DNA of 62,659 bases. It comes from a virus. Positions 1,840-59,860 of the stretch are shown here, one piece after another. The stretch is from IMG/VR virus record IMGVR_UViG_3300028048_000073, positions 1 to 62,659 of that record; one strand, given 5' to 3'. Under the pieces are notes generated by a model, which saw only the letters and a program-made list of their open reading frames with translations, did no database searches and was not told the DNA's origin. How positions within the stretch are numbered: the stretch's first letter is position 1; each line of letters starts with the position of its first letter. The translations under genes were made by a program, and so were the position numbers.

Positions 1840-1889
1840 TGTGTTTACCACCTTTTCAAAATTTGTTGTTGTTGTCTTTCGACACTATT

Positions 1890-1918
1890 ATAATATCACA
1901 TATCAACCTTAATTGCAA
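1890..1918 (-). promoter_or_regulatory. promoter, minus strand: TTGCAA-17nt-TATTAT
   Basis: RC reads TTGCAAttaaggttgatatgtgaTATTAT. It is preceded by a second copy of the conserved 21-mer (1941-1961). Confidence 0.45.
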
Positions 1919-1939
1919 TACTTTTGACCCAATTTTTTT

Positions 1940-2520
1940 CGTTTCTACGTTTTGCACAAAAAACAGGCAGCGGATTTGTTCATTTTGCTAAGTCAATATA
2001 CAAGTTGCACAAAGATTTTTTAGTGTAAAAAGTGTCGTCATTTTGCACAAAAGCTCTTTGTGCAACTTTAACAAAAAAGGCAGCGGCATTTTGTGCAAGT
2101 TGCTAAGTCAATGGGCAAAATGCACAAAACTTTTGTTCGATAAAAACCTCCGTCAAAATGCACAAAAAAGGTTACAAAGTTTTCCACATATTACAGAGTT
2201 GTAACCTTTTTTGTGCATTTTGACGGAGGTTTTCCACAGGGCAGCGGCTCAGAATATTTTTGTGCAAAATGCTGAAAATAGTTACAATTTTGTTACCTTT
2301 GTAACTTTTAAAAAATTACAATTATTACAATTTTGTAACTATTTTCTACGTTTTGCACAAAAAATGGGCAGCGGCAAGGCAAAATTTTGTGCAAATCGCC
2401 AAAAATTGTTACAAAATTGTAACTTATTACAATTTTGTTACTTTTGGGAAGTTACAAACCTGTAACTATATTTGTGCAAAATGCACAAAAATTTCATTAT
2501 GAAATTTTTGTGCAAAATGA
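1940..2520. repeat. noncoding block dense in operator/iteron-like repeats: TTTTGTGCAA / TGCACAAAA, GTTACA-N4-TGTAAC, GGCAGCGGC, TGCTAAGTCAAT
   Basis: At least 16 copies of the TTGTGCA(A/T) decamer in both orientations and about 5 GTTACA..TGTAAC inverted repeats. There is no ORF with an RBS in the block. Confidence 0.7.
2143..2233. repeat. perfect 35-bp inverted repeat (arms 2143-2177 and 2199-2233) with 21-nt loop
   Basis: Left arm aaaacctccgtcaaaatgcacaaaaaaggttacaa is the exact reverse complement of the right arm. U-runs flank both sides. Confidence 0.8.
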
Positions 2521-2556
2521 CGGGTCGCATCTATATGGCGCGAGCGCCAGCGACCC
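2521..2556 (-). terminator. GC-rich hairpin (gggtcgc...gcgaccc, nested ggcgc-ga-gcgcc) plus T-run on the minus strand; terminator for the 2705..2875 gene
   Basis: seen directly; the stem is the most GC-rich 36 nt in the region. Confidence 0.45.
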
Positions 2557-2704
2557 GAGGAGGCATTTTTTGACGTGTGCACTTTTGTCGTTTTGGGAAA
2601 CAATCATTATGTTGTTGTGTGTGCTTTTGCTCTTTGTTTTTTCTTCATTGTGCTTAGTCTGTACATCTTCGAGCTAAGGCCATGTGGCCTCAACCCTTGC
2701 GATG

Positions 2705-2875
2705 TTATCCTAAGAAGTATGCCTTGAGTACCTTATAGCATAGGTCAGCATTTTCTTTTCCTGTTTCTGAATCGTCTTCTGCAAATCCATTCATTGCTGC
2801 TTTGATTAATTCCTCAACAGAAATAAAAGATAACAACATCTGCAATGCTACTACATTATTGATGTTATTATACAT
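2705..2875 (-). CDS. 56-aa hypothetical protein (early gene, absent from the ORF track)
   Basis: ATG preceded by AAAGGAGA RBS; a perfect TTGACA-17-TATAAT promoter lies about 40 nt upstream; translation MYNNINNVVALQMLLSFISVEELIKAAMNGFAEDDSETGKENADLCYKVLKAYFLG. Confidence 0.45.
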   Translation of the reverse strand: MYNNINNVVALQMLLSFISVEELIKAAMNGFAEDDSETGKENADLCYKVLKAYFLG

Positions 2876-2910
2876 AATGATTGTTTCTCCTTTCTTTTGT
2901 TGTTATATAT

Positions 2911-2939
2911 ATTATAACATATATTTTATATGTTGTCAA
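2911..2939 (-). promoter_or_regulatory. sigma-70-type promoter, minus strand: TTGACA-17nt-TATAAT
   Basis: RC reads TTGACAacatataaaatatatgtTATAAT. Confidence 0.55.
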
Positions 2940-3585
2940 TGTGTTGTATCTATTGTGTTGTTGTGTGTGTTGTATATATGTATGTGTTGTGTGCGTTATT
3001 GTATGTGTGTTGTTGTATATATGTTTATGTTGTTGTATCTGTTGTTGTTGTGTTTATTATGTTATTATGTTATTGTTGTGTTAATGTTGTTGTGCTCTTT
3101 GTTGTGTGTGTTGTTACTGTTATGTACGTGTGTGTATGTCTATGTAGCTGTGTGTATATGCGTATATATGTATGTATATATGTTATAACAATAGTGTTGT
3201 TATGTATATGTATGTATATTAGTATGTGTGTATGTATTGTAGTGTATATTATTATGTTATTATGTGTATGTATTATTGTGTATGTTATGTTGTTGTATTG
3301 TATGTGTTTATGTATATTATTGTATGTGTTGTTATGTTGTATGTGTTTGTACATAAGTACATTGTGTTGTTATATGTCTGTGTAGATATGTATTGTTGTA
3401 TATCTATGTTGTTGTTGTATTATTTTATATTGTATTATTGTGTATATTGTTGTGTATGTTATTGTGTTATGTTTATTATATTGCTGTGTATGTTATGTGT
3501 TAGTGTTGTTGTGCTTGTCTCTTTATGTGTTGGTGTAGTTATAGTGTTATGTTGTTGTGTGCGTGGATAAGTGTGCGTGAGTAGC
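2925..3585. repeat. about 660-bp low-complexity GT-rich, C-depleted tract of degenerate TGT/TAT/GTT triplets with short (TG)n runs
   Basis: The plus strand is almost only G, T and A over 650 nt. There is no regular repeat unit and no credible ORF. Confidence 0.8.
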
Positions 3586-4252
3586 TGCTATGTGGCATCA
3601 TCTAAGCAAGTACTGCCGCATTTTATTCACCGTATTTTTATACCTCTTATTATCTCTTTCTATTGGTCTTAGCAATAGAACAATACAATATAATCTTATG
3701 TATTTATGCGCGCGTTCGGTTTGTATATCCTCGCACAAGTTTGGTTCATTACGAAACGGCTGCCCGCGCCTCAATATATACTCCATTATTTTCTCACTAT
3801 TGTTCTTCCACAAATGTTGTAATAAATATCCTTCATTAATAATATCATTCAAAATTTTTAAATAGTTTTATCAATACTCTTTAAATGTTTTTATACCTTT
3901 AAATAATTTATTAAGATAATTGTTTATAAAGCAAAATTTATTTAATTGTTTTTATTTATTTATGGCAGCGGCAAATATAAAAAGAAAATAAAACATAATG
4001 CGCTTGCTTTTGTGGCAGGTGTATTAAATAAACGGCTTACTTTTGTGGGAGGGTCCTAGGTGAACGGAGCCAAGAAAAAAAGTCTTCAGCTTCGTGACGT
4101 ACCGGGGGTATATTTTGGGATAATAAATTTGATTTTCTAAAAAATTTAATTTACCACGCACTTTCCGACAGCAAAAGTTTTTTCGTTTTAAAAAAGCGAA
4201 GCATATTTTCTAAACACCAATAACGAAAAATTTTTAAATCAATTAAATATTC

Positions 4253-4307: not shown

Positions 4308-5384
4308 TTGGACAATTCAAAACAACACATTCCCCTTGATTACTCAATCACAGACCCAAAAGAAAGAAAGAAACTTGTTGATAAAATCCTTGCAGAGAAT
4401 CCAAATCCCTCCAAGCAATATTTAGAAATTTTATCAGATTACATCGTTTTAGCAATGACCAAAGAAGAAAAAAAAGAAAAGAAAATCCTTACAGATAATC
4501 GCATGGTAACTGTCAACAAGCGCGAAACCTCTTATCAAGGGCTTGTATCTAAACTTGAAAATGGCGAAGATGGCTTATACCATATGATGGGCGGCAATGA
4601 TAAAAACATCATTTTAACCCCCAAAATAAGTATTACTAAAAAAGACCTTGATGAAATACCTGCACTTCAACAAATGCGCAAAGATATCGAATATTGGAAA
4701 GAAAAAGAAAAAACTGCGGTGGGCAAAGACCGTTATATCATTAAAAAAACAATCATTGAACTTTCACAAGACCAATATATCGTCAAAAGTGCTTTTCGTA
4801 ATCCCATTATAACTCAAAACACCGTAAAAACAGAACACAAAATTGATTTTGGTGAAAACTATTATATCGACGCGGAAGGCAATATTCAAAGTGATGGTCT
4901 TGTCACCCTTCTCAATCCTCAGCACGTCTCTGCCATTCTCTGCAATTATAATTTATTCAGATGCGGCGACTCAGGTAAAGACCTCACAGACCTAGTAGAT
5001 GAGCTTGACAAACTTATTGATCAAACACTTAAAGACGACTATCCTTTCTATTATGACCTTGTTTGGCTTAAAATAGATGGAATAAAAAATGCGGATATCC
5101 ACAAACAACTTAATGACAAACACGGCTACACCTACTCCGTCGAATATCTTTCAGCTTTGTGGCGCAAAAAAATCCCCAAACTTCTATCAGAGCAAGCGCA
5201 AGAAAATGCGCTTATCTGGTATTACACCGAAGTAGAACGCGGCAAGTGGAAACGTTGCTCTCGATGTGGCGAAGTCAAATTAGCGCACAGCCGTTTTTTC
5301 TCTCGAAATAAAACTGCATCCGATGGCTGGTATAGTGTATGCAAGTGCTGCCGCAACAAGAAAAAAGGAGCTGGGCAGAAATGA
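4308..5384 (+). CDS. hypothetical protein with C-terminal Cys4 zinc-ribbon; possible small terminase or DNA-binding packaging protein
   Basis: 358-aa ORF with TTG start after GGAAAGGAGGG RBS; CSRCG...CKCC motif at the C-terminus; first gene of the rightward block before terL. Confidence 0.5.
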   Translation: MDNSKQHIPLDYSITDPKERKKLVDKILAENPNPSKQYLEILSDYIVLAMTKEEKKEKKILTDNRMVTVNKRETSYQGLVSKLENGEDGLYHMMGGNDKNIILTPKISITKKDLDEIPALQQMRKDIEYWKEKEKTAVGKDRYIIKKTIIELSQDQYIVKSAFRNPIITQNTVKTEHKIDFGENYYIDAEGNIQSDGLVTLLNPQHVSAILCNYNLFRCGDSGKDLTDLVDELDKLIDQTLKDDYPFYYDLVWLKIDGIKNADIHKQLNDKHGYTYSVEYLSALWRKKIPKLLSEQAQENALIWYYTEVERGKWKRCSRCGEVKLAHSRFFSRNKTASDGWYSVCKCCRNKKKGAGQK

Positions 5385-6987: not shown

Positions 6988-7921
6988 AATATAAAAAAGA
7001 AGGAGGAGCACATAGTGAGTGCAAAAAACGTCCTTAGATATTTTGATAAAATTAATACAGAAGAGAAAGCCTATTGGTTGGGTTTTTTATATGCAGATGG
7101 TTCTATTTCTTCCAAAGAAGATAAAATTGAATTAGGTTTAGCAGAGAAAGATTTACATCATATTGAAAAATTTAAACAAAGTTTACAATTACCAAATAAA
7201 ATATGTTATAGGGCTTCAACAAAATCTTATAGAATTAGCTTTAGAAGTCAATCATGTAAGCAAGATCTCATTAATAAAGGTTGTGTTCCTAAAAAATCTT
7301 TAATTCTAAAATTTCCAACAGAAAAACAAGTTCCTTTTTATCTTTTAAAACATTTTATTAGAGGATATTTTGATGGAGATGGATGGTTCACAAATACGTC
7401 TGATTGTTTTCAAGTTGGCATCATTGGAACACAGGACTTTATTCAAGGGTTTTTAAATGCAGTAGAAAACATTAATAAAACAAATAAAATTTTTAGTGTT
7501 CATAGAGAAAACGGTGCAAAAAGATACATATTTGGAGCTTATAATGATGTCTTAAATTTTTTAAATTGGATTTATAAAGATTCAACAATTTATTTAGATA
7601 GAAAATATGAATCTTATTTAGATTTTATTCAAAATGGAAGTAAATATCATAAATAATAATTTTTATATGCCGCCATATTAAAGTAATTTAATATAAGAAA
7701 ACTGCGGAATTAAGCGGGGAAGCTGAGATGCTAATCCGAACCGAAGGCCAATAAATAAAAGGATTGGTCAGGGGCAACGCATAGGGGGTGACGAAAGAAT
7801 AATCTCTCCACGAGGCCGCAGCTCCTTTGAAAGGATGAAAAGATATGCTAGACTTATACGAAAGCAAGTATAAGATTTTATGGATAAAAAGCCATAAAGA
7901 TAATATAATCGAAAGAACAAG
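6988..7921 (+). mobile_element. putative group I intron (about 934 nt) interrupting terL, carrying a LAGLIDADG homing-endonuclease ORF
   Basis: The two terL halves are in-frame homologues of contiguous gp17 sequence. The intervening sequence has stops, its own RBS, and a 3-prime 260 nt with P/Q/R/S-like core elements (attaagcggggaagc, taatccgaacc, ggtcaggggcaa, aagaataatctctcc). The modelled exon 1 ends in T and the modelled intron ends in G. Confidence 0.6.
7015..7656 (+). CDS. LAGLIDADG-family homing endonuclease (two motifs: LGFLYADGSI and IRGYFDGDGWF)
   Basis: 213-aa ORF inside the terL interruption, GTG start after GAAGGAGG RBS. Confidence 0.8.
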   Translation: MSAKNVLRYFDKINTEEKAYWLGFLYADGSISSKEDKIELGLAEKDLHHIEKFKQSLQLPNKICYRASTKSYRISFRSQSCKQDLINKGCVPKKSLILKFPTEKQVPFYLLKHFIRGYFDGDGWFTNTSDCFQVGIIGTQDFIQGFLNAVENINKTNKIFSVHRENGAKRYIFGAYNDVLNFLNWIYKDSTIYLDRKYESYLDFIQNGSKYHK

Positions 7922-21141: not shown

Positions 21142-21185
21142 ATAAAAAAGGAATAAAATCAAAAGTGGAAAAGGAGTTAGATAAT

Positions 21186-21743
21186 ATGGAAACAGAAATT
21201 ACTTCTCTATATCCTCATTTTTCAGATATAGATACAAAATATAAAAAAGAATTTAAGACTTTTATTTGGCGCGATAAAGAAATTAAAGTATCTCAATATC
21301 TTCCTATTGATGAGAAAATTGCTTTAATTGATATTGCACTTCAAAAGTCAATGCACAATGGTATAGTACATCCGCTTCAGCTTGAAAAATATTACCAGCT
21401 TGGTCTTGTTTATATGTATTCTGATATTGTATTCTCAGAAGAGGATCGTACAGATGAAGCTAAGATTTATGATGAACTTTATGTAACGGGATTATTAAAT
21501 GAGGTTATAAAATATATCCCAACGAAAGAATTGCAGACTTGCGCAGATAAACTTAATCAAACTAAAGCTGCTATTGAAAAGCATAAAGTAAGTGCAGTTG
21601 GTATTATTGAAACATTGATTGATACTATTGAAAATGAAGTTCCGCATATCATGGATATGGTAAATAATCTTACACCAGAAAATGCACAGCAGCTATTGCA
21701 GATGATTTCATCAAAAATACCTGTAGAGGAAGGTCAAAATTAA
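21186..21743 (+). CDS. tail assembly chaperone (putative)
   Basis: Acidic protein of about 186 aa immediately upstream of the tape-measure gene; GGAAAAGGAG RBS. Confidence 0.4.
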   Translation: METEITSLYPHFSDIDTKYKKEFKTFIWRDKEIKVSQYLPIDEKIALIDIALQKSMHNGIVHPLQLEKYYQLGLVYMYSDIVFSEEDRTDEAKIYDELYVTGLLNEVIKYIPTKELQTCADKLNQTKAAIEKHKVSAVGIIETLIDTIENEVPHIMDMVNNLTPENAQQLLQMISSKIPVEEGQN

Positions 21744-21770
21744 ATAAGCAGAACAAGTTAATTCGTCTAA

Positions 21771-21806
21771 GTCTATTATCATTATATAATGATAATAGAC
21801 TTTTTT
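21771..21806 (+). terminator. rho-independent terminator/attenuator: 14-bp stem gtctattatcatta-tata-taatgataatagac plus T6
   Basis: perfect hairpin followed by TTTTTTATTTT, between the chaperone and tape-measure genes. Confidence 0.55.
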
Positions 21807-55290: not shown

Positions 55291-55896
55291 TTATAATATA
55301 TTATTTTTTGAATTGAAATATTTAATTGCTTCGTCCATTATATTTTTAACTAAAACTTCCGTTGGGAAATCTTCATAATCAGTCTGCGTATATCCTAAAT
55401 AAAGATGAGGATACTTGTTAAAAAATGCCTCAAAATCTTTTTTATCGGTATGATAACGTCTTATAATTTCTTCTATATCTGGAGAAATTTCTCTGTTCAA
55501 ACTTCTAATTAATCGTACTTTATCAAAGCAATCCAAAAAACAAGGAAAAACACATATATCTTGCTTCTCTTTCTCGCGGCAAAGCAAAAAATCAATTCCT
55601 GTAGGATTAAAAACGCCAATATTTATTTTTGAAACTCTAAGATCCTCAATACCTGTTCCATAATACCAATTATTGAAAACAGTTGTTTCTAAAAATTTAC
55701 CTTGAGCTTCTTTTAAAGCAAAGTCCATTTTATTGACAAAATGATAATTGATTCCATCTACCTCTCCAATACGCTTTGGGCGAGTGGTGTATGAAACAAT
55801 AGTATGAATATCTTTAGGATATTGTTTTTCAATGGCTTTGAGCAGCGTGTCTTTCCCCGCGCCGCTCTTACCAAATATAGCAAGTATGTTATACAT
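55291..55896 (-). CDS. gmk: guanylate kinase-like (d)NMP kinase
   Basis: GKSGAGKDTL P-loop and TTRPKRIGEVDGINYHFV match Gmk TTRPPRxGExDGxDYxFV. Start trimmed to MYNIL after a GGAGGA RBS. Confidence 0.65.
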   Translation of the reverse strand: MYNILAIFGKSGAGKDTLLKAIEKQYPKDIHTIVSYTTRPKRIGEVDGINYHFVNKMDFALKEAQGKFLETTVFNNWYYGTGIEDLRVSKINIGVFNPTGIDFLLCREKEKQDICVFPCFLDCFDKVRLIRSLNREISPDIEEIIRRYHTDKKDFEAFFNKYPHLYLGYTQTDYEDFPTEVLVKNIMDEAIKYFNSKNNIL

Positions 55897-58800
55897 ATTC
55901 TTCCTCCGTTTTGTATCTTTCACTTGTCAAGACTAAGCTGTCTTTATTTACTTTTGTTATTTTATATAACTGATGACCAGGGGTATCAAAATAAGTCTTT
56001 GATACAAAAGTATCATCTTTACGATATCCTTGAATCATAAGTTTTGTTCCTCTCTTGAACCAAGATTTTTCCTTTACGTGCTTATCGCCTGCTTCATCTT
56101 TTTCAGATATCTGTTTCTTAAACATAGCATAATACTCTTTTGTGAACTTTACATTGACGACACCATCCACTGTCAGCAGAGCAATGGATGCCTTTGTATC
56201 ATTCTTACCGATAACAGTGCCTGCAATTCTTTTTATTTTATAAACAGGAAGTCGTCTACCATTCCTCTTATAATAATGGTCAACTTCTGGCTGCTGTGGC
56301 ATTGAGAAGAAGTTTTCAATTCCATATCTATTGAAATCAACATTTGCTAACTCATGTGGATGTGAGTAGAAACATAATGCAGACATTTCCCAGAATGAGA
56401 TACTTCCTTCGGCATAATGATCCCAATAATCTAAGAACAGCTTTATATTCAATTCTTGTAGAACTTGCTCTTGATATTCTTTAAGCCAAGTGCGGGCGCC
56501 ATCCATGAACTTATCATATAACTTTGCCCATACGGAGACCTTTATGCAAGGAGTTCCCGCAATTATTTCAACCTTATCAATATCAAAATACTGCTCATAG
56601 AAGTTGTAACAGTCATCATCAAAAGCATAATAGCCCCTTACTTTTCGCTTTGCTTTAAGATATTTATTAAAGTTAAAAGCATATTTGTATTGAACCATAT
56701 TCTCAGGAATTAAATCTTGGTTAATTAGTCCATTAAAATTCTGTAAGGTTAATCTCCGCTTCGGCTCACAAGCCTTTGCACAGAAGATTGTCATAATCAA
56801 AATGCGGGGGTCAACCCCTAATTCCATTGCCCATTCTCTCTCCAAGTTATCAAATGCACCACCTTTAATAAGTGATAACATCGTTGGCTTTTTCAAAGGG
56901 CATCTATTCATAAAATCAAAGAAGCTAACATAAGGTCTGCCCGCAATAATCTGGTCAATCTGTGCTTCATTAACCTGTGTAACTGGCTTTAATCCATATA
57001 GAATTTGATTATTTTTTGCATCCGGTTTAAACGTATATCCTGAACTATTGATATCAATAATAGAAACTTTAATTCCTCTATTAATTAATGTTCCAATAGC
57101 ACGAGCAATTTTTTCATAGTTGGCATTTTTTGCTTTTTTAGCATTATCTTCTTCTTCTTCTTCTTCATCCCATTCATTTTCTTCTGAATTGCTATTCACA
57201 ATTAAGCATGCTGTATTCCAATAAATGGGATTCCAATTTGTAGCTAAAAATGCTGTCTGCAGTCCTATGAAACTATAAGCAAGCGCATGGATGACGCTAA
57301 AACTGTAGGTAGCTTGAGGTTTTACCCCACAATCCCATATATATCTTCCTAAGTTAGGAGATTTTGCTCTTGTTTGAACTTTTATTTTTAATTCATTAAT
57401 GCGTTTTGTTTGTTTCTTTGAAATAATTTTGCGTGCGTCGTTACTTTCTGCCAGCGAGAAATTACAAATATTGGCGTCCATCAACATCCGCATAAGATCT
57501 TCTTGAGCGATTGGAACACCGCAAGAGGGTTCAAAATACGGTCTAACAGCTTCTACTTCTTCTCTTGTCAAACCATATTTTCTCATTTCATCGTACCACA
57601 ATGCAATATTCTTCTTAAAACGGATATATTTTTCCATAGGCGGTTCCGCGCCTTTTTCGCTTGGTGCTAATCTCATAAGTCCGTTACTAAGTGCTAATTC
57701 TTCAACTGACCGGGGAGCAATTTTCTTTGCCGCTTGGCTTCCTACGTCTGAGTCAAATTGGAATAAATCTAGCACACATCCTTCTTTGATCGCTTGCCAA
57801 ATTTCTTTTCGATTGGTAGGAAGAACCTCAGGGTGAAGATATTTATTGTAGATTTCTCTTAACGACAAATCCTTTTCTATTTGCCCATCTTCTTGTAAAA
57901 GTTTTATTGTTTGTAATATTTTATCTTGGATTTTTGTGATCAGAACGTCATATTTAATGTTCCCTGCCGCCTCGGCTTGATGAAGATCCCATTGTGTAAT
58001 AATATCTCCATTTGGCGCACGCATAAAAGCACACTTTTCAAAAGGATTTCCTTCAAAAAAGATAACCCCGGATGCATGCTCTCCTCTGCCGCTAATTGTT
58101 TGCTGCACGCCTAACGCAATATCAATTAATCCAGGGTATTGTTCAACCTCTCTTACAAAAGGCATTACAGGTTTTCTCGCCTTTTCTTCATTTCCATAAA
58201 GAACATCCTCTAATGACCAAGCTTCTCCTCTTTCAGTGGGAATTAGACTAGAAAGATACTGACCGATGTCAATATCAATGCCTTCTGGCCACTCTTCGGA
58301 ACGATAACCTCGACAAGCTACAAGAATTGCAGATTTTGCACTCTCTGTTCTAAAAGTTGCAACAAGAGTACAGCCTAAATTTTCCTTAAAAATATCGTCT
58401 AAATCATCATCTAAATAAGCTTTTCGTTCTGCTTTAATTCGTTTCAAGATAGTAGGGCGACGATCTGAAGCTACATCTATGTCAACATCAGCAATTTCAA
58501 GTCTTTCACTGTTCATATAACGAAACCAAGGGAGGTTCCATTTGACCGGGTCTAGCTGCGTAATTCCCAATAACCAGTGATTTAGTCCTGCACAGGCGCT
58601 TCCTCGTCCCGCTCCGACCGTGCTTCCGCAATCCCATATCATATCAATATAGTGTTGCAAAGTAACTGGATAAGAAAACATATTGGTATGGATTTTTTCT
58701 CCAATGATTTTCTTAGTACAAGCTTCTTCTTCAAGCCTTTCCAAGTAAATAATTTTATCAGGGTCTTCTTCCCAATTAATGTTTTTGCTCTTTAATCCTT

Positions 58801-59860
58801 CAAAACATTGATTTACCCAATATCTTTCAACCTCATTTGTTGAACTAAATAACGAACTGAGGACTGGAAATTTTTCTTTAGGCAGTATAGATTCTCTTTT
58901 AGGATAATCTTTGATATCAACAGTAGGTATCTCTGGATGAGAAAGAATAGAATACTCTTCTACTTTATTATATATATCATTACTATTTTGGAACATTTTT
59001 TGAACATAGAGTCTATCATAGTCAGACTGTGCAAGATGTTCAATTATTTCTTCGTTGGATTGAAGATAAGCATACTGATAAAAAGCATCAACTTCTCTTT
59101 CGCCCTCTTTAGAATTAAGAAAAGCTTTATGGATGGGGCGTTGTTCTGGAGTTAAATAATGAGAGTCTGACCCTATTACCATAGGAACATTAAAGCATGA
59201 GCTAACTGAAAGCAATCTTCTATTAACCATAACCTGATCTTTTGAACAACCAGGCGCACATTCAATATAAAAATCTTCTCCAAAAAGGTCTTTACACATT
59301 AATATAAAATTAACAATTTCATCATGTGCTCTTGCTACTTCTACATGATCTTCTAACCGCTCAGCTTCAATCAACTTTTTAGTATTGTAAGATAGACACC
59401 CAGCCAAGCAAGCTGTTGTTGCTATTAAAGTATTAGGATACTTTTTACAAATTTTCTTTAAGTCATCATAGGTTGTTACTACCCGTTCCATCCTGCGGTC
59501 AACGTAAGAATTGAGCCAAGCTTTTGAAGATAATTCTCTTAACGCAATATGTCCTTGAAGATTTTTTGCAATCAAGATAAAATGGTAATAAGGTTGATTT
59601 TTACTTCTATCTCCACATAGGTAAATTTCATTTCCAAGAGCGACTTTAAAATCGGGGTGTTTTTCTTTTATCTGCATAGCATATTTGTTTGCGTGAATAT
59701 GTGCACTAAGGCAGTCATGATCAGTTATTGCTATTCCGCTCAAACCCAATTCTATTGCTTTGTCAATTAACTGCTCCGGTGCATTAATTGCATCAATGAG
59801 ACGTAAAGAAGAATAATAGGTATGAGAATGTGGTTCAAAGCGAGTGTCTGTTATTTGCAT
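55889..59860 (-). CDS. dnaE: DNA polymerase III alpha subunit (DnaE-like, N-terminal PHP domain)
   Basis: 1323 aa; PHP motifs HSHTYYS and AITDHD at the N-terminus; length and architecture of pol III alpha. Confidence 0.75.
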   Translation of the reverse strand: MQITDTRFEPHSHTYYSSLRLIDAINAPEQLIDKAIELGLSGIAITDHDCLSAHIHANKYAMQIKEKHPDFKVALGNEIYLCGDRSKNQPYYHFILIAKNLQGHIALRELSSKAWLNSYVDRRMERVVTTYDDLKKICKKYPNTLIATTACLAGCLSYNTKKLIEAERLEDHVEVARAHDEIVNFILMCKDLFGEDFYIECAPGCSKDQVMVNRRLLSVSSCFNVPMVIGSDSHYLTPEQRPIHKAFLNSKEGEREVDAFYQYAYLQSNEEIIEHLAQSDYDRLYVQKMFQNSNDIYNKVEEYSILSHPEIPTVDIKDYPKRESILPKEKFPVLSSLFSSTNEVERYWVNQCFEGLKSKNINWEEDPDKIIYLERLEEEACTKKIIGEKIHTNMFSYPVTLQHYIDMIWDCGSTVGAGRGSACAGLNHWLLGITQLDPVKWNLPWFRYMNSERLEIADVDIDVASDRRPTILKRIKAERKAYLDDDLDDIFKENLGCTLVATFRTESAKSAILVACRGYRSEEWPEGIDIDIGQYLSSLIPTERGEAWSLEDVLYGNEEKARKPVMPFVREVEQYPGLIDIALGVQQTISGRGEHASGVIFFEGNPFEKCAFMRAPNGDIITQWDLHQAEAAGNIKYDVLITKIQDKILQTIKLLQEDGQIEKDLSLREIYNKYLHPEVLPTNRKEIWQAIKEGCVLDLFQFDSDVGSQAAKKIAPRSVEELALSNGLMRLAPSEKGAEPPMEKYIRFKKNIALWYDEMRKYGLTREEVEAVRPYFEPSCGVPIAQEDLMRMLMDANICNFSLAESNDARKIISKKQTKRINELKIKVQTRAKSPNLGRYIWDCGVKPQATYSFSVIHALAYSFIGLQTAFLATNWNPIYWNTACLIVNSNSEENEWDEEEEEEDNAKKAKNANYEKIARAIGTLINRGIKVSIIDINSSGYTFKPDAKNNQILYGLKPVTQVNEAQIDQIIAGRPYVSFFDFMNRCPLKKPTMLSLIKGGAFDNLEREWAMELGVDPRILIMTIFCAKACEPKRRLTLQNFNGLINQDLIPENMVQYKYAFNFNKYLKAKRKVRGYYAFDDDCYNFYEQYFDIDKVEIIAGTPCIKVSVWAKLYDKFMDGARTWLKEYQEQVLQELNIKLFLDYWDHYAEGSISFWEMSALCFYSHPHELANVDFNRYGIENFFSMPQQPEVDHYYKRNGRRLPVYKIKRIAGTVIGKNDTKASIALLTVDGVVNVKFTKEYYAMFKKQISEKDEAGDKHVKEKSWFKRGTKLMIQGYRKDDTFVSKTYFDTPGHQLYKITKVNKDSLVLTSERYKTEEEYV

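Follow-up and report, generated by a model that had tools for sequence, protein, structure and literature searches.

A perfect 35-bp palindrome in a conserved non-coding repeat hub of an uncultivated SPbeta/phAss-1-like siphovirus: a candidate composite protein-binding platform

The DNA analyzed here comprises positions 1 to 62,659 of IMG/VR virus record IMGVR_UViG_3300028048_000073 (hereafter the window, 62,659 nucleotides (nt) in full), which comes from an uncultivated SPbeta/phAss-1-like siphovirus whose genome is incomplete. Near its left end lies a non-coding repeat hub of ~580 base pairs (bp), rich in clustered short motifs and devoid of a credible open reading frame (ORF) or a strong promoter. 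No other non-coding DNA of the mosaic early region is as well conserved, and the hub contains the subject of this study, a perfect palindrome with 35-nt arms. Two motif families recur in the hub and in both arms of the palindrome. Type-1 sites have the consensus TTTGTGCA-WWW-TGCACAAA (W, A or T), with aligned copies of the form xCA-WWW-TGCACAAAA, and type-2 sites have the consensus (AAAG)GTTACAA-WW-TTGTAAC(CTTT). A first-pass annotation had described the palindrome within the repeat hub and had noted one TGCACAAAA and one GTTACAA in each arm; a repeat search and direct reading confirmed the palindrome, and the content of the arms was found to be as described. The hub and the parts of the palindrome are as follows.

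1940-2522, no strand: non-coding repeat hub, ~580 bp, with motif clusters
2143-2177, no strand: left arm of the palindrome, AAAACCTCCGTCAAAATGCACAAAAAAGGTTACAA, composed of AAAA-CCTCC-GTCAAAATGCACAAAA-AA-GGTTACAA, with a type-1 site and a type-2 half-site
2178-2198, no strand: spacer, AGTTTTCCACATATTACAGAG, 21 nt, asymmetric and non-palindromic
2199-2233, no strand: right arm, the exact reverse complement of the left arm
2280-2466, no strand: AT-rich type-2 block with five type-2 sites, at 2281, 2324, 2408 (perfect), 2426 and 2451

The two arms, 35 nt each and 100% complementary across the 21-nt spacer, follow one plan: A4, CCTCC, a complete type-1 site, AA and an inward-facing type-2 half-site (GGTTACAA). 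The type-1 site of the left arm reads GTCA-AAA-TGCACAAAA, in which TGCACAAAA is the strong half and GTCA the weak half. Since the two type-1 centers in the palindrome are 62 bp apart, or ~6 helical turns, they are expected to lie on the same face of the helix. Spacer and right arm together form a type-2-like site, ATTACAGAGTTGTAAC (2190-2205), and the spacer also carries a DnaA-box-like TTTTCCACA at 2180-2188, a second copy of which lies at 2230-2238. The U-runs said by the first-pass annotation to flank both strands are present as A4/T4, but these four positions belong to the arms, of which they are the outermost, paired positions; beyond the T4 of the arm the plus strand continues with CC (TTTTCC) and the minus strand with one more T (TTTTTATCG) and then A.

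Folded as RNA, the palindrome has a calculated energy of -59.1 kcal/mol (z = -11.6), and folded as DNA one of -40.7 kcal/mol (z = -11.8); in neither case was any of 200 shuffled sequences as stable. No other perfect hairpin in the window is as long; the next longest have arms of 17, 16, 14 and 14 bp, and the hub holds four of the seven longest. The longest arms that arose in 30 Markov-1 simulations of the window measured 10-14 bp, which bears out the earlier statement that the palindrome is very unlikely by chance. Elsewhere in the window, a perfect 34-bp palindrome (17-bp arms, no spacer) occupies 21769-21802, between ORF 21165-21743 and an ORF of 3040 amino acids (aa).

The palindrome is present in at least ten independent assemblies, and contigs from nine other samples (MEGAHIT, SPAdes-type and Joint Genome Institute assemblies) read through it into unique flanks. 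Two Logan contigs built with k=31 (L154 and L005) end at 2172 and resume at 2204, i.e. 30 nt into each arm, and four Logan contigs of a sister lineage (L177, L178, L180 and L183) show the same break. The two break points correspond to the last and the first 31-mer that an arm does not fully contain, as expected for a perfect inverted repeat of at least 31 bp. Considering that contigs from other assemblers cross the palindrome with unique flanks, we conclude that it is not an assembly artifact. An exact search with the arm sequence gave no match in 2.9 million IMG/VR viral contigs, blastn of 1400-2700 gave none in 50,697 phage records, and Rfam returned sub-threshold plant and animal microRNA-hairpin models only, which are generic for long hairpins.

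The hub as a whole consists of four degenerate units of 113-161 nt, each headed by GGCAGCGG(C/A), at 1966, 2079, 2240 and 2367. It holds 13 type-1 cores (centers 1951, 2004, 2042, 2066, 2099, 2119, 2157, 2219, 2268, 2352, 2395, 2480 and 2516); 17 of the 21 copies of the TGCACAAA core in the window fall within 776-2517, and the type-1 12-mer has 10 matches against 2.2 expected. One copy, TTTGTGCAAAATGCACAAA at 2471-2489, is a perfect 19-bp palindrome, while the weak half is variable (TGAC, TGCT or CGTA), and together these features suggest a dimer-type operator with one strong half and one variable weak half. The type-2 family is confined still more tightly: with up to two mismatches allowed over the 62.7 kilobases (kb) scanned, all six sites fall in 2190-2466, five in the AT-rich block and the sixth, at 2190, inside the palindrome. 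A third family, GGCAGCGGC, occurs only in this region, in five exact copies and one variant (GGCAGCGGA), all on the plus strand and conserved among strains (1584, 1966, 2079, 2240, 2367 and 3964), four of which head the hub units. It contains AGCGG, the Chi sequence of B. subtilis, and was considered as a late-promoter or Chi-like element; in the window CAGCGG is found 12:1 on the plus over the minus strand, and AGCGG is co-oriented with gene direction.

Known binding sites were compared with these motifs. A scan for DnaA boxes (TTWTNCACA) gave ten matches in or near the hub, eight of which are TTTTGCACA, a part of the type-1 site. We rejected the TGCACAAAA unit as a DnaA box, because copies differ at the first four positions (TTTT, AAAA, AGTT and others) and its conserved AAAA tail lies outside such a box. 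The DnaA-like boxes that are left are the two copies of TTTTCCACA, one of them lost in L175, L177 and L180, and these do not amount to a DnaA-box cluster. Type-1 and type-2 sites were likewise rejected as sigma-54, BirA, Spo0A, cre, Rex, LexA, NtrC or TnrA boxes, whose consensuses differ in spacing or core. A literature search for the motif found nothing relevant.

Type-1 sites are not limited to the body of the hub, as four of them accompany promoters of the early region.

773-791, no strand: single type-1 site, ~39 nt upstream of the -35 element of leftward promoter 734-706
1137-1155, no strand: single type-1 site, 31 nt upstream of the -35 element of leftward promoter 1108-1080
1495-1517, no strand: single type-1 site (TTTCTACGTTTTGCACAAAA), 32 nt upstream of the -35 element of leftward promoter 1471-1443
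1942-1962, no strand: type-1 site at the left hub edge, 32 nt upstream of the -35 element of leftward promoter 1918-1890

The promoters are sigma-70-like and the sites stand in either orientation. The same motif thus occurs in several early promoter regions (promoters 734, 1108, 1471 and 1918), as expected of an operator array, and its placement 31-39 nt upstream of four early -35 elements makes it most likely that the type-1 protein is a regulator of early transcription.

Selection on the hub was examined in a strain set of ~30 related contigs, which were found through exact look-up of a 56-aa protein, the product of the sole early gene conserved beside the hub, and of its homologues. Among strains with swapped flanking early genes, block 1887-4200 is 91-94% identical and in several of them is better conserved than the adjacent sigma gene (83-87%). 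Variability was tested in seven lineages, 91-96% identical over the hub; the covariation alignment comprised 7-9 lineages with few substitutions and hence has low power. The state of the palindrome in these strains is given below.

L155, L157/L163, L159 and L164: perfect, same as in the window
L156: perfect, with the compensated pair C2147T and G2229A
L158/L160/L162: 34 of 35 pairs; C2161T, within the type-1 core
L176: 33 of 35 pairs; C2147T and T2200C
L175: 33 of 35 pairs; T2208C and G2222A
L186: one indel and C2224T
P0008 lineage: absent, together with the entire left half of the hub

Variable positions among the strains are 2147 and 2161 only in the left arm and, each in a single lineage, 2200, 2208, 2222, 2224 and 2229 in the right arm. 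The spacer is conserved like the arms, with one of 21 columns variable (G2196A, in L156 alone, which improves the type-2 match) and with its TTTTCCACA invariant. The fraction of variable columns is 5.4% in type-1 cores, 5.6% in GGCAGCGGC, 10.4% in type-2 sites and 6.6% in the whole 91-bp palindrome, whereas elsewhere in the hub it reaches 29.1% (Fisher tests of the motifs and of the palindrome against these remaining columns gave p = 1.5e-9 and 3e-6, respectively). Variability in the motifs, and in the palindrome over its full 91 bp, is 4-5 times lower than in the inter-motif spacers. The type-1 motif is therefore under purifying selection relative to its surroundings (5.4% versus 29.1%), the second property expected of an operator array, and the palindrome, spacer included, is constrained as sequence by purifying selection.

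Pairing of the arms, on the other hand, is not demonstrably selected. In the pairing test 98.8% of the alignment cells were paired, with one compensated pair, two wobble and three mismatch changes, and 132 of 500 shuffles reached an equal score, so that covariation was not significant, keeping in mind the few substitutions and low power of this alignment. The uncompensated transitions would allow wobble pairing on different strands, an observation that speaks against a single transcribed strand. The palindrome has been retained across lineages in which the 56-aa protein is merely 77-82% identical. It is single-copy in the window and sits at the same locus in all strains that carry it, which does not correspond to the behavior of a mobile element of the miniature inverted-repeat type. 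The locus represents a well-documented case of a long perfect palindrome kept for its sequence rather than for its hairpin.

Beyond the hub, the following features bear on its interpretation.

2523-2557, minus strand: GC-rich hairpin at the right hub edge, stem GGGTCGC/GCGACCC with an aligned extension pairing 2526-2533 with 2548-2555, followed by GTCATTTTGCAC
2705-2875, minus strand: gene of the 56-aa acidic early protein, with consensus promoter TTGACA-17-TATAAT at 2939-2911
4308-5384, rightward: phage sigma factor (phrog_5767)
55889-59860, minus strand: Pol III-alpha polymerase

To the left of the hub lie small minus-strand genes, each with a sigma-70-like promoter and a short GC-rich bidirectional terminator. 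The short terminators of this genome have stems of 5-11 bp and loops of 4-7 nt; four were found near the hub by a consensus scan, and the palindrome was not among its calls. A promoter scan detected no convincing promoter directed into the palindrome, and only a weak promoter-like site at 2348-2321 (leftward). The hairpin at the right edge behaves as a structural one: it is 100% paired in nine lineages, with T-A, C-G and G-C at one pair and a loop that varies (0 of 500 shuffles), and this clean covariation with a free loop marks it as a structural hairpin, which is probably the terminator of the 56-aa gene. The genes flanking the hub encode products of 56-87 aa without recognizable domains, and no initiator gene was recognized among them. 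To the right of the hub the order is GC hairpin, 56-aa gene, a C-free tract of ~650 nt, and the rightward sigma gene and late operon (consensus promoter 4253). The tract lies within 2900-3580 between the divergent promoters 2939 and 4253, and its plus strand is nearly C-less and rich in G and T (T/G/A, with many TG/TA alternations). It is of low complexity, yet its sequence and length are conserved among strains as part of the 91-94% identical block; it is probably non-coding, since the ORFs called there differ in length among strains. A plus-strand ORF (2575-2727) stands behind GAGGAGG, a ribosome-binding site that is not conserved in the P0007 lineage.

The window is internal to the European Nucleotide Archive contig ERZ27252073 k141_713716 (68,287 nt). 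Circular closure of the window was rejected, because it is an internal piece of this contig, which shows no terminal overlap, and its relatives measure ~139.5 kb; from sister lineages of ~139.5 kb in three samples, the source contig is about half a genome. Other genes in the window encode NrdD, NrdG, a dUTPase, a superfamily 1 helicase, a YonG_N protein, the large terminase and the portal, and the 3040-aa ORF is close in size to the tape-measure proteins of the phAss-1 group (~3150 aa). Of the annotated phages, Enterococcus phages EF1, EF5 and VRE9 and phage phAss-1 are the nearest relatives, SPbeta-like phages being more remote. A new family with hosts among the Eubacteriales has been proposed for this group (PMC10607447). 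Most lineages of these large gut siphoviruses (phAss-1/EF1/SPbeta-like) have no cultured model. A LAGLIDADG-like ORF (7015-7656) lies between the YonG-like gene and the terminase gene, a GIY-YIG ORF (L019 3693-4427) splits a DHH/RecJ-like gene, and the large-terminase gene was matched in two or three separated pieces in L001 and L023, which suggests traffic of homing endonucleases or introns. In-frame TAG codons occur in the sigma gene of relative L002 (2500-2600), and four of them in a Zn-ribbon/nuclease-like ORF at the start of the source contig, outside the window (L019 1-760). Phage phAss-1 is listed in a 'code 15 clade', and the long ORFs of the window itself look uninterrupted.

Type-1-rich hubs are also present in relatives L008, L024 and L028, and weakly in L026, whose sigma factors are 43-48% identical. 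These hubs have perfect inverted repeats of their own and of other design, with 23-bp arms in L024 (motif outward) and L008 and several of 16-22 bp in L028. The type-1 sites of L028 form four separate promoter-adjacent hubs, in which a type-1 site abuts the -35 element of consensus promoters that face a GC hairpin and then GTCA-WWW-TGCACAAAA; this module of GC hairpin and GTCA-WWW-TGCACAAAA is also found at 2506-2557 of the window, and in L008 and L028 it stands directly downstream of consensus promoters. Other relatives have different repeats in the equivalent place. L021 carries 29 copies of GTTTACATAA, and CGAACN4GTTCG occurs in the hubs of L003 (6320-6380, 7550-7565 and 8265-8285) and L021 (3267, 3360 and 4565). 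CGAACN4GTTCG has the form of the Gram-positive LexA (SOS) box, which hints at SOS-responsive control and possibly at a temperate or carrier lifestyle in the group. The corresponding 1.2-kb non-coding divergence region of VRE9_4 (L189 2350-3300; PP680570.1 ~127.0-128.0 kb), annotated with tiny spurious ORFs only, holds two copies of TGTAAGCGCTTACA, three of TTGTGAAACATTTCACA, a AATAACAnnTGTTATT family, GAAC-N4-GTAC/ATTC repeats and a 111-bp perfect tandem duplication. Both copies of TGTAAGCGCTTACA are perfect cre-like boxes, the sequence being that of the optimal cre, while TTGTGAAACATTTCACA is Rex-like and GAAC-N4-GTAC/ATTC LexA-like. In L191 and L192 (139.5 kb) the type-2 site is extended to AAAGGTTACAA-WW-TTGTAACCTTT in 20-bp tandem arrays, which occupy the position of the C-poor tract of the window. 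Both also have an unrelated perfect palindrome (L191 8189-8288 and L192 7362-7461; 34- and 31-bp arms, spacer of 32-38 nt) in a 1.9-kb non-coding early stretch, showing that long perfect palindromes recur in the group with different sequences. From these comparisons, the hub emerges as a family trait with lineage-specific motifs.

The type-1 site extends to unrelated genomes. Two 14-kb phi29-like podoviruses from IMG/VR (L014 and L015; collar, encapsidation ATPase and PolB) have inverted terminal repeats of ~350 bp filled by type-1 palindromes, and they have no protein in common with the type-1 siphoviruses. Their terminal repeats also carry a TTATCGTAAAACGATAAA repeat, and L015 comes from metagenome 3300045988, the same as type-1 siphovirus L008. 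A search of 185,579 genomes for the 19-bp type-1 palindrome returned at least 120 loci, mostly from Clostridia metagenome-assembled genomes among the matches listed. Also among the matches listed, 108 of 122 sites were intergenic, as a raw count with no composition-matched control, and no neighboring gene recurred, the largest cluster being eight loci (ABC ATPases). This distribution is no more than suggestive of a host regulon.

We interpret the palindrome as a DNA-level, symmetrical composite protein-binding platform in an early-control hub, a tentative reading to which we assign a probability of about 0.45. Each arm would offer a complete type-1 operator (TTTTGTGCA-WWW-TGAC) and an inward type-2 half-site (AAAGGTTACAA), and the spacer would add the type-2-like site. 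Dimers of one sequence-specific protein would occupy the type-1 sites and a second protein the type-2 sites, and together with ~11 further type-1 and five further type-2 sites of the hub they may build a higher-order nucleoprotein complex. The hub could in this way serve as a high-density nucleation or titration center of the type-1 protein and may double as a replication origin; the roles in transcription control and at an origin are not mutually exclusive. The perfect symmetry most likely goes back to an inverted duplication that was followed by sequence constraint on both copies and by occasional templated correction, and it can be accounted for without invoking selection for a hairpin. Protein binding, the identity of the proteins, their cooperativity and the process controlled are what we infer from the sequence. 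The hub motifs are defined precisely enough for retrieval of the binding proteins and for plasmid origin tests.

Several points weigh against a protein-binding platform. Pfam and PHROG scans of ~40 ORFs revealed no helix-turn-helix or recombinase-like regulator besides the sigma factor, keeping in mind that, with about half of the genome in the window, relevant genes may lie outside it. No protein is common to the sampled motif-carrying loci, and the hub itself contains no convincing promoter on which such proteins could act. The palindrome is absent from the P0008 lineage and is therefore not essential in every background. The compensatory pair of L156 (C2147T/G2229A) and the perfection of the palindrome in most lineages could reflect hairpin selection, and the GC-skew minimum described below and the 20-bp type-2 tandem arrays of relatives fit an origin as well or better. 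There is also an unlikely variant in which the type-1 site is the operator of a host (Clostridia) regulator and the hubs read host physiology to time early expression or replication. The phages would then carry different host-regulator boxes, type-1 here, LexA-like in relatives and cre-/Rex-like in the Enterococcus relative, with the 35-bp palindrome as the highest-affinity paired site, and the phi29-like podoviruses would have recruited the type-1 box into their terminal repeats, as with the Spo0A boxes of phi29. If type-1 is indeed a host-regulator box common to unrelated phages, it would show gut Clostridia phages coupling their development to the state of the host.

Among other explanations, a replication origin as the primary role is the most probable, though rather unlikely. 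The type-1 and/or type-2 sites would be initiator iterons, and the duplex would be opened by remodeling or extrusion of the palindrome, whose arms would present initiator sites and whose AT-rich center carries the DnaA-box-like 9-mer. The 13 type-1 and six type-2 sites, clustered in a non-coding and promoter-poor stretch beside the AT-rich type-2 block, have the layout expected of iterons, the cumulative GC skew has its minimum at 1800-2200, and relatives L191 and L192 combine iteron-like 20-bp type-2 tandem arrays with an unrelated palindrome of 34-bp arms. The block is moreover the best-conserved DNA among mosaic strains, the TTTTCCACA in the spacer is invariant, and type-1 sites fill the phi29-like inverted terminal repeats, where origins lie. 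However, GC skew also tracks gene orientation, the occurrence of type-1 sites at four unrelated early promoters and in four L028 hubs suits a transcription factor more than an initiator, and in relatives the corresponding position is taken by LexA-, cre- and Rex-like boxes. The P0008 lineage lacks that half of the hub in which the palindrome lies, there are two DnaA-like boxes only, one of them lost in L175, L177 and L180, and no initiator gene was recognized adjoining or overlapping the hub. The cruciform at an origin envisaged in the first-pass annotation thus keeps some standing from the site array, the skew minimum and the type-2 arrays of relatives, and loses some to the lineage without the palindrome. 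For the nicking or primosome-loading site named there as well, the analysis gave no evidence in either direction. A related idea, a protelomerase target of the telRL type, was rejected, as the spacer is 21 nt long and asymmetric and the gene scans revealed no protelomerase gene. By SPbeta synteny, the hub might instead be a pac site, an array bound by the small terminase, which we regard as very improbable. The order hub, sigma, YonG-like, large terminase, portal agrees with the opening point, or pac, of the SPbeta genome, which directly precedes the late operon in the interval from yonR to yonP (PMC8270828; bioRxiv 10.1101/2021.11.22.469490). Repeated sites are typical of pac regions, and three ~139.5-kb genomes have different break points, as expected for permuted headful genomes. 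Such a function does not, though, account for type-1 sites near early promoters or in the terminal repeats of phi29-like phages; no small terminase was identified, and the kinship with SPbeta is remote, tblastn with the YonG-like protein having failed to recover SPbeta.

The bidirectional terminator put forward in the first-pass annotation came out as the least supported of its functional proposals, and an RNA element of any kind, whether intrinsic terminator or RNase III processing hairpin, is improbable. The stem base CCUCCGUC/GACGGAGG, followed by U4-5, is GC-rich and stands between an A-tract and a T-tract as in the short bidirectional terminators of this genome, the RNA hairpin is very stable (-59 kcal/mol), one compensatory pair arose via a common U-G intermediate (L176, then L156), and the weak promoter-like site at 2348-2321 could fire leftward into the palindrome. 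Nevertheless, a 35-bp stem with a 21-nt loop contrasts with the 5-11 bp and 4-7 nt of the real terminators here, the U-run is just 4-5 long, and no convincing promoter points into the palindrome. The leftward transcript of the 56-aa gene already meets the covarying hairpin at 2557-2523, the loop and other non-pairing features are conserved like the stem, the uncompensated changes in four lineages are wobble-compatible on different strands, and the arm motifs recur unpaired elsewhere. It is likewise improbable that the palindrome has no function of its own, being a recent inverted duplication of a hub unit maintained by hairpin-templated correction, in which only the embedded motifs matter. The left arm does lie within a 78-nt direct repeat of the preceding unit (72% identity), perfect inverted repeats of other designs abound in the hubs of relatives, the palindrome is dispensable in the P0008 lineage and covariation is not significant. 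Against such neutrality, low variability extends over the whole 91 bp, non-motif positions and asymmetric loop included (4-5 times below the hub spacers), and the palindrome has been kept in lineages whose 56-aa protein is 77-82% identical.

Among known systems, the phi29 family has Spo0A boxes near early promoters and origins. The type-1 motif resembles them in that the same short site stands near early promoters and in origin-bearing ends (L014, L015 and the siphovirus group), but it matches none of the 0A, LexA, cre, Rex and DnaA boxes, and its binding protein may be of host origin. Rho-independent bidirectional terminators have in common with the palindrome an A-tract, a GC-rich stem base and a T-tract. 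The palindrome departs from them in its 35-bp stem and 21-nt loop, in the conservation of that loop and in showing no significant covariation. In HSV-1 (herpes simplex virus 1) oriS and the SV40 (simian virus 40) core origin, initiator boxes lie in the arms of a palindrome with an A+T-rich center. Inverted initiator-type sites in the arms and an A+T-rich center are also seen in the present palindrome; those origins, however, belong to eukaryotic viruses without homology to this phage, and here the spacer is asymmetric (21 nt) and the arms are much longer. The lambda ori contains four dyad-symmetric iterons, an AT-rich region and a palindrome, and P4 ori/crr is also of the iteron type. The hub resembles these iteron origins in its clustered dyad-symmetric sites in both orientations, its AT-rich block, its palindrome and the occurrence of sites outside the cluster, and departs from them in having no adjoining initiator gene, an irregular spacing of 20-85 bp and two or three interleaved motif families.

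Finally, the SPBRE element of SPbeta was predicted in silico and later shown to be the operator of the master repressor MrpR (YopR) at ten early promoters (PMC10516654). SPbeta and the present phage are alike in being large siphoviruses with a Pol III-alpha replisome whose intergenic early-promoter regions contain copies of a short conserved element. The differences are that the present phage is remotely related, that its sequence motif is presumably a different one from the 15-bp SPBRE motif, that no MrpR-like protein (tyrosine-recombinase fold) was found in the available half genome, and that most copies are gathered in one promoter-poor hub with long perfect inverted repeats. By analogy, SPBRE and MrpR may be regarded as the closest precedent for the type-1 sites and the hub in which they are concentrated.

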